Assembly (NCBI GenBank): GCA_043808015.1
Contig: JAZDFI010000008.1
Location: 13,271 to 77,270 of the forward strand
DNA: 64,000 bases
Direction of reading: 5' to 3'
DNA from: Candidatus Aenigmatarchaeota archaeon
Lineage (GTDB): Archaea; Aenigmatarchaeota; Aenigmatarchaeia; QMZP01; QMZT01
Each line of letters starts with the position of its first letter. Within the stretch, counting starts at the first letter, position 1. Of this stretch, positions 46,401 through 47,993 are shown piece by piece. The notes under the pieces are model-generated. The model was given only the letters and a program-made list of their open reading frames with translations, had not been told where the DNA came from and did not search any database. The position numbers and the translations under genes were made by a program.

Positions 46401-47993
46401 ATTCCGGCTGATCCTGCCGGAGGTCACTGCTATTCGGATATGACTAAGCCATGCAAGTAATGGGTTAAACCATTGCGTAAAGCTCAGTAACACGTAGTTA
46501 ACCTGCCCTTGGGCCTGCCACAATCTCGGGAAACTGAGGCTAAAGACAGATGGGCAATAAAATCTGGAATGATTTATTGCTGAACTAAGGATGGGACTGC
46601 GGAAGATTAGCTTGTTGTCAGGATAAAAACCTGACAAGGCGATAATCTTTACGGGCCTTGAGAGAGGTAGCCCGGAGATGGATTCTGAGACAACAATCCA
46701 GGTCCTACGGGACGCAGCAGGCGCGAAACTTTCCCAATGCACGAAAGTGTGAGGAAGATATCTGGAGTGCTCTCTCTTAGGAGGGGGCTTTTCTGGAGTC
46801 CAGACCGCTTCAGGAATAAGGGGTGGGTAAGACGGGTGCCAGCCGCCGCGGTAATACCCGCGCCCCGAGTGGTGACCGCGATTATTGGGCTTAAAGCGTT
46901 CGTAGCCGGTTTTGTAAGTCCCCAGTGAAATCGATTGGCAAACCAATCGGCTTGCTGAGGATACTGCATTACTTGGGACCGGGAGAGGTTAGAGGTACTC
47001 CAGGGGTAAGGGTAAAATCTTATAATCCTTGGGGGACCACCTGTGGCGAAGGCGTCTAACTAGAACGGATCCGACGGTGAGGGACGAAAGCTAGGGGAGC
47101 GAACCGGATTAGATAACCGGGTAGTCCTAGCTGTAAACGATGCCTACTAGACATCGGAAATCTCAAGGGGGTTTTCGGAGTCGGAGGGAAACCGTTAAGT
47201 AGGCCGCCTGGGGAGTACGGTCGCAAGGCTGAAACTTAAGGGAATTGGCGGGGGAGCACACAAGGGGTGGAGGCTGCGGTTCAATTCGACTCAACGCGGG
47301 GAACCTTACCAGAGGCGACAGCAGTATGAAGGTCAGACTTAAGATCTTACCAGACGCGCTGAGAAGTAGTGCATGGCCGTCGTCAGTTCGTGCCGTGAGG
47401 TGTCGTCTTAAGTGACGTAACGAACAAGACCCACGCTTCATGTTGCTAACCAATTCTATTGGTGCACTCATGGAGGACCGCTGACGATAAGTCCGAGGAA
47501 GGTGTGGTCGACGGCAGGTCCGTATGCCCTGAATCCTCTGGGATACACGCGGCCTACAATGGATGGTACAATGAGATGCGACACCGAAAGGTGAAGCTAA
47601 TCTCGAAAACCATTCCCAGTTCAGATCGAGGGTTGCAACTCACCCTCGTGAAGCCGAAATCCCTAGTAGTCGCTGGTTAGCATCTAGCGGCGAATAAGTT
47701 CCTGCTCCTTGCACACACTGCCCGTCAAGCCATCCGAGTGAAGACTTGGTGAGGTTTTTCTTTCGAGAAAGATCGAACCAAATTTTTGCAAGGAGGGCTA
47801 AGTCGTAAAGTGACGAGATGGGCAATTTGAGGGATTCCACAAGAATCCTTATGACAGCTAGAAGTGTGCGTCTTAAACGAAAGAATCATGCCTATGGTAT
47901 GGATTCGATCTACGCTACTCTAGTGTAAAATATCATCTCGTCACCCGATAAACAAGGTAACCGTACGGGAACGTGCGGTTGGATCACCTCCTT
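46401..47993 (+). rRNA. rrs: 16S rRNA gene (archaeal), interrupted near its 3' end by a 144-nt insertion/intron
   Basis: 5' ATTCCGGCTGATCCTGCCGGAGG; internal GTGCCAGCCGCCGCGGTAATAC; 3' GGATCACCTCC; total 1593 nt, 1449 nt without the insertion. Confidence 0.9.
47809..47952 (+). other. Candidate 16S rRNA intron (144 nt) inserted between the equivalents of E. coli A1500 and C1501 (GUCGUAA | CAAGGUAACC), closed by an 11-bp terminal helix
   Basis: The universally contiguous GUCGUAACAAGGUAACCGUA is split; the insert starts AGUGACGAGAUG and ends CAUCUCGUCAC (perfect inverted ends). Confidence 0.65.

Follow-up and report, generated by a model that had tools for sequence, protein, structure and literature searches.

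We analyzed a 64,000-nucleotide (nt) stretch of a Candidatus Aenigmatarchaeota archaeon genome (GenBank assembly GCA_043808015.1, contig JAZDFI010000008.1, positions 13,271 to 77,270, forward strand), hereafter the window, in whose own coordinates all positions are given. Its 16S rRNA gene carries a 144-nt insert that, judging from its sequence and with a probability we put at roughly 0.8, is a spliced bulge-helix-bulge (BHB) intron of this Aenigmatarchaeota (DPANN) lineage. The intron site is the single-stranded linker between helices 44 and 45 (h44 and h45), between E. coli positions 1499 and 1500, beside the decoding centre. An earlier, sequence-only reading of the window had proposed an excisable archaeal rRNA intron here, and this proposal is supported by what can be observed directly: the anatomy of the insert; its conservation and covariation, with a BHB that covaries in 67 junction sequences and is recovered by RNAalifold; relatives with LAGLIDADG homing endonuclease genes at the same site; and a rate of change like that of the operon's spacer.

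The insert interrupts the 3' end of the 16S rRNA gene

The window contains an archaeal rRNA operon, in which Rfam places the 16S gene from 46401, the 23S gene at 48693-51828 and an intron-bearing tRNA gene at 54658-54766. The match to the archaeal small subunit (SSU) rRNA model RF01959 starts at 46401 with 1344 bits and aligns cleanly through AAGUCGUAA, after which the last ~40 model positions are pushed into the insert and all helix 45 pairs are broken. Rfam sets the 3' end of the 16S at 47839, which is wrong: the true helix 45 is matched separately at 47957-47981, with the anti-Shine-Dalgarno end GGAUCACCUCC on its 3' side, and the gene spans 46401 to ~47992. The universal GAAGUCGUAACAAGGUA is interrupted by 144 nt between GUCGUAA and CAAGGUAACCGU, exactly where the Rfam SSU alignment breaks, and the sequence across the junctions reads ...GGGCUAAGUCGUAA (ending at 47808), then A GUGACGAGAUGG ... 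UCAUCUCGUCAC CCGAUAAA (ending at 47952), then CAAGGUAACCGUACGGGAACGUGCGGUUGGAUCACCUCC. The 144-nt insertion after GUCGUAA described by the sequence-only reading is thus borne out by the sequence itself and by the covariance-model check that it had proposed, with the alignment broken at the insert and helix 45 recovered downstream; its removal does leave a 16S of ~1449 nt. The statement that the insert encodes no open reading frame (ORF) is true in substance, the only mechanical ATG frame being one of 36 codons (47818-47928), and nothing resembling a homing endonuclease is present.

In E. coli numbering, reckoned from the 3' end of its 16S, GUCG corresponds to G1494-G1497 and UAAC to U1498-C1501. 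An AA repeat makes the boundary ambiguous by 2 nt, such that the registers 47807-47950, 47808-47951 and 47809-47952 (after 1498, 1499 and 1500, respectively) give one spliced product. The boundary between A1500 and C1501 given earlier is one of these three equivalent registers, but the canonical BHB rule puts the cut at 1499/1500 and not at 1500/1501, with an identical product. The gene is accordingly laid out as follows.

Positions 46401 to 47807, plus strand: 16S rRNA exon 1, ending in ...GUCGUA (E. coli A1499); extent from the 1344-bit RF01959 match, end from BHB geometry under the canonical rule.
Positions 47808 to 47951 (equivalently 47807 to 47950 or 47809 to 47952), plus strand: predicted intron of 144 nt without a homing endonuclease ORF, with 70 distinct homologues at the same site.
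Positions 47952 to 47992, plus strand: 16S rRNA exon 2, comprising ACAAGGUAACCGU, helix 45 (matched at 47957-47981) and the anti-Shine-Dalgarno end GGAUCACCUCC.

The ends of the insert form a bulge-helix-bulge with the upstream exon

The minimum-free-energy fold of the insert (z = -2.6 against shuffles) pairs 47810-47821 with 47933-47944 and, in addition, exon GUCG (47802-47805) with CGAU (47946-47949). The closing helix of the window's copy consists of 11 Watson-Crick pairs plus G47821.U47933, with an A47809.C47945 mismatch at its base. The perfect 11-bp helix that had been placed at the ends of the insert is therefore present, but it does not lie at the very end, as the insert continues for 8 bases, CCGAUAAA, beyond the helix's 3' strand CAUCUCGUCAC (47934-47944).

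Looking for a BHB at the junctions, as the sequence-only reading had advised, gave a positive result. A 4-bp central helix, formed by exon positions 1494-1497 and the 3' tail of the intron, lies between two 3-nt bulges on opposite strands (UAA at 47806-47808, AAA at 47950-47952) and adjoins the long closing helix; a cut after the second base of each bulge yields GUCGUA joined to ACAAGG, restoring the universal GUCGUAACAAGG. Transfer RNA introns are arranged likewise: their central helix is built from the 5' exon and the 3' end of the intron, position 32 of the anticodon loop pairs with the intron base that lies three residues upstream of the 3' splice site, and the adjacent bulge is made of two intron bases and nucleotide 38. 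In the precursor, the intron is modelled as a three-way junction of a closing helix of 12-13 bp (P1), a hairpin with a kink-turn signature (P2) and a variable arm (P3), with the following parts.

Positions 47802 to 47805, plus strand: 5' strand of the BHB central helix, exon GUCG (G1494-G1497); 100% paired with 47946-47949 in 67 sequences, and found in both the minimum-free-energy and RNAalifold folds.
Positions 47806 to 47808, plus strand: bulge 1 (UA, cut, A), the predicted 5' splice site; unpaired in the minimum-free-energy and consensus folds.
Positions 47809 to 47821, plus strand: 5' strand of P1, the outer helix h'; 13 columns, 93.7% paired, 7 pairs with compensatory changes.
Positions 47828 to 47854, plus strand: P2, the kink-turn hairpin, with UGA at 47828-47830, C-stem 47831-47837/47843-47849, loop CACAA, bulge UAU at 47850-47852 and GA at 47853-47854.
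Positions 47857 to 47924, plus strand: P3, the variable hairpin arm, with pairs 47857-47861/47920-47924 (RNAalifold columns 63-67/156-160; also in the minimum-free-energy fold).
Positions 47933 to 47945, plus strand: 3' strand of P1, from the minimum-free-energy fold, covariation and RNAalifold.
Positions 47946 to 47949, plus strand: 3' strand of the BHB central helix, intron CGAU; CG invariant, the next two bases A/G and U/C in 70 sequences.
Positions 47950 to 47952, plus strand: bulge 2 (AA, cut, A), the predicted 3' splice site, whose last A becomes A1500; position -1 is A in 70/70, -2 is A in 67, U in 2 and C in 1, and -3 is A in 70/70.

Homologues at the same site covary in the same helices

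Scanning one genome per species with a gapped pattern gave 60 loci. Only 7 of these are real archaeal same-site inserts; most of the others are duplications of 16S ends produced by assembly, or chance matches to protein-coding genes of bacteria. In the bacterial matches L002, L004, L018, L023, L024, L043, L046, L048, L050 and L054, the last ~150 nt of the 16S are tandemly duplicated, often beside runs of N, and these duplications are assembly artefacts at operon ends rather than insertions. A scan of metagenomes, whose pattern fixed only the end of the 5' exon and part of the P1 5' strand, returned at least 120 loci, of which ~24 of 120 are chance matches outside rRNA. Together, the genome and metagenome matches comprise 91 complete short inserts of 69-213 nt, at least 70 of them distinct, plus longer members. 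The family counts used here (91, 70, 67 and 62/70) are counts among the matches listed, and true membership is larger. Among the same matches, the 16S exons of the carriers are between 99% and ~70% identical to that of the window, which by usual thresholds would correspond to class- to phylum-level breadth, its extension beyond Aenigmatarchaeota being judged from 16S identity only.

We then asked how well the proposed pairs hold in 67 distinct junction constructs. The 17 pairs of the BHB and P1 are standard-paired in 95.2% of cells, against 24-51% after a shift of the partner strand by 1-3 columns, and 7 of them change on both sides (120 cells), a level that 0/500 shuffles reach. The central helix is paired in all 67 sequences, its intron strand varying only between U and C opposite G1494 and between A and G opposite U1495. 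The P1 pair adjoining the bulge covaries between A-U (36) and G-C (29), the A.C of the window being a local exception. The 3' elements (Y-CGRY-A-N-A) lay outside the search pattern: intron positions -7 and -6 are an invariant C-G, and A stands at -3 and -1 in all 70 sequences, with the variation noted above confined to -2. An invariant -1 beside a variable -2 would follow from canonical cleavage, because this makes -1 the exonic A1500 and leaves -2 in the intron. Further, RNAalifold, run on 17 full-length sequences with no structure supplied, recovered the central helix, P1, the P2 hairpin and the base of P3, with compensatory changes in 16 of 29 pairs. The structure of the insert is not a product of chance, and the covariation of the same helices across 70 distinct homologues is more decisive on this point than the fold z score.

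The family shares a kink-turn module

A GA dinucleotide at insert positions 21-22 is invariant (70/70) and was not imposed by the search. It lies directly before a hairpin that varies freely in sequence and remains paired, after which come exactly 3 unpaired bases (NAU in 56 of 62) and a second GA. In a position-anchored test, this kink-turn signature occurs in 62/70 inserts, compared with 6.4 ± 2.4 (maximum 12) after shuffling of the interior; the anchored test replaced an unanchored one that proved too permissive (66/70 against 31/70 in shuffles). The stem of the kink-turn covaries in the RNAalifold consensus, and the signature recurs in the 23S insert and the tRNA-Lys intron of the window. 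These signatures suggest that L7Ae probably binds the introns that bear them. We rejected a box C/D guide function, which would call for two kink-turns (C/D and C'/D') and a guide of 10-12 nt complementary to rRNA or tRNA: there is a single kink-turn motif, and no guide matching 16S or 23S rRNA is conserved; complementarity of at least 9 nt to either is at chance level and falls mostly in non-conserved parts of the intron.

Longer members carry homing endonuclease genes

Two family members at this site, L084 (795 nt) and L136 (853 nt), share the ends of the short inserts, and each contains one long sense ORF, with Pfam matches to LAGLIDADG_3 at E = 2e-10 and 2.8e-13, respectively. Because the L084 ORF starts directly after the P2 kink-turn, at the position of P3, the short introns look like derivatives from which the endonuclease gene was deleted while the RNA scaffold was kept. 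In L136 (plus strand, 1089-1941), an AUG within the conserved GAGAUGGGC shares the reading frame of the LAGLIDADG ORF, for which it is the likely start codon (window counterpart 47816-47824); the short introns may thus preserve, in part of their conserved 5' motif, a relic of the endonuclease start region. Two copies of the 11-mer AGATGGGCAAT lie in the same orientation, at 46548-46558 in the 16S 5' domain and at 47816-47826 in the intron, where ~0.03 occurrences would be expected in 64 kb over both strands; this repeat is probably due to chance.

The insert changes like spacer and is fixed in its clade

The nearest homologue, L047, is a Candidatus Aenigmatarchaeota genome from Lac Pavin sediment. 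Between it and the window, identity is 99.15% in the 16S exon and 99.7% in the 23S, compared with 89.6% in the insert and 89.4% in the spacer, and two of the insert differences are compensatory double changes in the P2 stem. Because its divergence equals that of the spacer, the insert appears to change at the rate of a discarded transcript and not at that of mature rRNA. L100 (JGI Ga0315297) is identical to the window across the 5' junction of the intron.

Gene order around the operon is kept in the Aenigmatarchaeota relatives L181-L184 (Na+/H+ exchanger, prolyl-tRNA synthetase (ProRS), CBS protein, 16S-tRNA-23S, Sec61-beta, metallo-beta-lactamase; window 42969-46275 and 52361-53510), and this conservation made it possible to sample rRNA genes blind to the insert, by fetching contigs through homologues of the operon-adjacent ProRS, which are named Aenigm(at)archaeota. 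In L181, L182, L183, L184 and L186, whose ProRS proteins are 85-65% identical to the window's, the rRNA operon is adjacent, and the insert is present in 5/5, at ~110-180 nt; the ProRS relatives L185, L187 and L188 have no rRNA operon nearby and fall outside the count. On these five sampled relatives, the insert is fixed in the Aenigmatarchaeota clade.

A model for splicing, and the alternatives

In the mechanism that we propose, the intron's CGAU on the 3' side of P1 would pair with exon G1494-G1497 and leave two opposite-strand 3-nt bulges 4 bp apart. By analogy with established BHB substrates, the tRNA-splicing endonuclease EndA would cut both bulges, and the RtcB ligase would join the exons, restoring GUCGUAACAAGG, and circularize the intron; EndA cleavage followed by RtcB joining and intron circularization is the known chemistry of BHB introns (PMC4496867, PMC7714728). 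The kink-turn would probably bind L7Ae, aiding an intron fold that presents the BHB. The ancestor would have been a mobile intron with a LAGLIDADG homing endonuclease, copies of which persist at the site in relatives; in the window's copy, the endonuclease gene would have been lost and the intron fixed and vertically inherited in the lineage. The predicted junction sequences are GGGCTAAGTCGTAACAAGGTAACCGTACGGGAACG for the spliced RNA, AAGTCGTAAAGTGACGAGATGG and CGTCACCCGATAAACAAGGTAACC for the unspliced RNA, and, for the circular intron, CACCCGATAA joined to AAGTGACGAG (...CCGAUAA to AAGUGACG...).

At the top of helix 44 of the mature subunit, C1404-C1407 are the pairing partners of G1494-G1497, and 1498-1501 line the P-site and decoding region. 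The intron's CGAY has the pairing specificity of 16S C1404-C1407. While 1494-1497 are held by the intron tail, the decoding helix cannot form, and for this reason retention of a 144-nt branched RNA in a working ribosome is unlikely; the arrangement suggests, speculatively, an assembly-checkpoint role for intron removal. A larger joint reading, which we consider unlikely as a whole, would make the intron a domesticated, L7Ae-bound ribonucleoprotein serving as a late checkpoint of 30S assembly. Its CGAY tail would mimic 1404-1407 and hold 1494-1497, such that the decoding centre and the h44-h45 linker would form only after EndA and RtcB had acted, and the kink-turn shared with the 23S and tRNA-Lys introns would mark lineage-wide, L7Ae-assisted splicing in Aenigmatarchaeota and related DPANN. 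As a corollary, the BHB family would have replaced, or decayed from, the group I introns at SSU/1498 of other DPANN phyla, of which three are listed, all of the IB4 type, in Nanohaloarchaeota and Micrarchaeota, at the same site within the 2-nt ambiguity (Nawrocki et al., 2018, PMC6125680). If true, the replacement at SSU/1498 would be a concrete test case for the proposed descent of BHB introns from group I introns.

Several points weigh against the spliced-intron reading itself. Excision is read from the sequence, and cleavage, ligation, L7Ae binding and timing are inferred. No genes for EndA, RtcB or L7Ae are among the 27 window ORFs scanned. The junction does not have the strict hBHBh' form that alpha4/alpha'2 enzymes require: h' (P1) is present, but the exon-exon helix h is impossible, with A47801 and A47800 opposite C47953 and A47954. 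Because no such outer helix can form, the motif is of the relaxed HBh' form and needs a broad-specificity endonuclease; relaxed motifs are processed only by endonucleases of broadened specificity, which have been reported for several DPANN lineages (PMC5829648). Our search patterns prescribed the third base of bulge 1, along with parts of the P1 5' strand. Lastly, selfish rRNA introns are not usually fixed across a clade, nor do they usually conserve an internal module; both features would also be compatible with a functional rRNA element that is retained.

Such an element, an expansion segment that stays in the mature small subunit and protrudes from its h44/h45 linker, perhaps bound by L7Ae, is in our judgement very unlikely. 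It would account for the insert's presence in every independently sampled Aenigmatarchaeota relative and in 16S genes down to ~70% identity, and for a conserved kink-turn that suggests selection on the RNA itself, and DPANN and Candidate Phyla Radiation (CPR) rRNAs are known to carry many insertions (PMC7906910). However, the conserved 4-bp helix would sequester 1494-1497, which are needed to pair with 1404-1407; the junction has precisely the geometry of a substrate for the splicing endonuclease; homing endonuclease genes, which are a hallmark of introns, occur in members of the family; and length ranges over 69-853 nt, with sequence changing at the spacer's rate. The sequence-only reading had held that a lineage-wide expansion of helix 44/45 would speak against an intron: the insert is indeed lineage-wide (5/5 blind relatives), but this does not imply retention, and the BHB and endonuclease evidence favours splicing.

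The same structural evidence for cleavage applies if EndA or another RNase excises the insert and the exons are never re-ligated, leaving a fragmented 16S of ~1407 nt plus a ~41-nt 3' piece with helix 45 and the anti-Shine-Dalgarno sequence. Bacterial intervening sequences removed by RNase III are an analogue, and fragmented rRNAs occur in other lineages. We nonetheless regard this outcome as highly improbable: only a handful of base pairs would keep the 41-nt piece in place, the invariant -1 A fits a need for the exact ligated sequence, and archaea that splice tRNA introns have RtcB, the general joiner of EndA products (PMC4496867).

A self-splicing or degenerate group I intron is the least credible origin and was rejected, even though the three IB4 introns at SSU/1498 lie in DPANN archaea (PMC6125680) and LAGLIDADG genes occur in both intron types: the group I core model RF00028, known to be insensitive (PMC6125680), has no match in 47600-48300 (E ≤ 1) or in the L084 and L136 inserts (E ≤ 0.5), the last intron base is A in all three registers where a terminal G is required, members of 69-213 nt are too short for a catalytic core, and the 5' exon pairs with the intron's 3' tail and not with an internal guide near its 5' end.

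Other introns and inserts in the window and its relatives

The window holds further intron-like inserts, in the 23S, tRNA-Lys and tRNA-Ala genes, and the host must therefore splice RNA. The 23S gene has its insert, of ~193 nt, at ~51192-51384, at position ~2571 of the Rfam large subunit (LSU) model (GAGAGUCCAU, then the insert, A...AA, then AUCGACC). Its junction is BHB-like, pairing GUCC (51186-51189) with GGUC (51379-51382) with one U.U mismatch and with bulges AUA and AAA, and its kink-turn reads UUGA, a 13-bp hairpin (51299-51356), GAU and GA (51295-51361). Homologues of 110-183 nt occur in L064, L090, L095, L111, L139, L143, L146, L156, L181, L183 and L184, versions of 46-62 nt stand at the site in L034, L162 and L186, and L148 has none.

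The tRNA-Lys(CUU) gene (54658-54766) has an intron of ~36 nt at 37/38 (54695-54730), with the kink-turn signature UGA-GGCG-CUUG-CGCC-CGU-GA at 54702-54721. Its BHB is loose (C-G, U.U, C-G, U.C), and when we tried it as a control for the bulge-cleavage rule, it gave no information. In the spacer, a tRNA-Ala(UGC)-like gene (48084-48216) scores 25.2 bits, below the Rfam threshold, and has an apparent insert of ~31 nt in its D-loop and another of ~31 nt in or after its T-loop. These positions are non-canonical, which suggests a broad-specificity splicing endonuclease in the host. ARAGORN finds neither this gene nor any other tRNA in the window, missing those that Rfam found because every tRNA there carries introns. 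In the 16S processing stem, we saw no clear 3-4-3 motif of a canonical BHB; a long leader-trailer helix is present.

Some relatives pack more inserts into the last 45 nt of the 16S. In L115 (plus strand, 1-532) and L169 (plus strand, 2373-4872), an extra insert follows right after AACA, only ~4 nt downstream of the 1499/1500 intron, and in L169 a LAGLIDADG ORF lies inside it. The exon is interrupted by a further insert after GUAGCCGU (~1512) in L033, L040, L055, L132, L157, L160 and L177, and L115 also has an insert within helix 45 after GUAGCCGU. Elsewhere in the 16S and 23S of relatives there are inserts of 600-750 nt. L186, a more distant member of the Aenigmatarchaeota, has an extra insert of ~55 nt in the 16S 3' major domain (minus strand, ~6400-6470; between GGUUAGCAU and CUAGCGGCG), and a free-standing LAGLIDADG_3 gene (12433-13074) lies 1 kb from its ProRS gene, outside any rRNA gene.

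Significance and comparison with known systems

Among reverse primers for the full-length 16S, 1492R is the most widely used; it is the complement of 1492-1513 (AAGUCGUAA followed by CAAGGUARCCGUA). The intron splits this target, so carriers would be invisible or truncated in surveys that use 1492R, and automated rRNA callers mis-end the 16S gene because of it; the insertions that DPANN rRNA genes hold are simply stripped by pipelines (PMC7906910). An intron fixed throughout a deep archaeal radiation would be tolerated in the most conserved linker of SSU rRNA, beside A1492/A1493 and U1498. The recurrence of a kink-turn in three introns of a single genome prompts one to ask whether L7Ae has a part in archaeal intron folding or splicing. 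Further, a BHB intron here and group I introns in other DPANN phyla, at one site, would offer a useful comparison for the evolution of intron types.

Introns with BHB junctions and LAGLIDADG genes have long been known from archaeal rRNA. We found no description of the 1499/1500 intron family or its kink-turn in the searchable literature, although coverage there is incomplete and this is weak evidence. The family is large and previously uncatalogued, with unusual fixation and a conserved RNA module. The crenarchaeal BHB introns of the 16S and 23S (Pyrobaculum, Thermoproteus, Caldivirga, Aeropyrum) occupy 13 catalogued 16S loci, from 374 to 1391 (Jay and Inskeep, 2015, PMC4496867). Like these, the family described here interrupts a conserved rRNA stretch, has a junction BHB, includes LAGLIDADG-bearing and short ORF-less forms at one locus, and splits a 'universal' primer site. 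By contrast, the 1499/1500 locus is absent from the 13 catalogued, the host belongs to DPANN and not to Thermoproteales, the intron is fixed in all sampled relatives where theirs are sporadic, the kink-turn is conserved, and the motif is of the relaxed HBh' form only.

The IB4 introns at SSU/1498 share with the family a site within 1-2 nt, DPANN hosts and the frequent presence of LAGLIDADG genes (PMC6125680). Those introns are ribozymes of 293-743 nt with a detectable core, whereas the 16S BHB family has neither a core match nor a terminal G. A structural likeness is found in the archaeal pre-tRNA-Trp intron of Haloferax and other Euryarchaeota (see also PMC3608112), which is likewise a BHB intron with a kink-turn of the L7Ae type. 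Unlike the 16S intron, with its single kink-turn and no conserved guide, the pre-tRNA-Trp intron possesses both the C/D and the C'/D' box pair in complete form and directs the 2'-O-methylation of its flanking exons.

Insertion sequences in the rRNA genes of CPR bacteria were reportedly described by Brown et al. in 2015. The CPR insertions resemble the present case in their ultra-small, uncultivated hosts, in the crowding of insertions within rRNA genes, in the presence of some homing endonucleases and in having been missed by primer surveys (PMC11270868). Their bacterial hosts, however, lack EndA, and the CPR insertions are group I or group II introns or sequences of unknown processing, in contrast to the BHB substrate that we propose for the 16S insert of this archaeal lineage.

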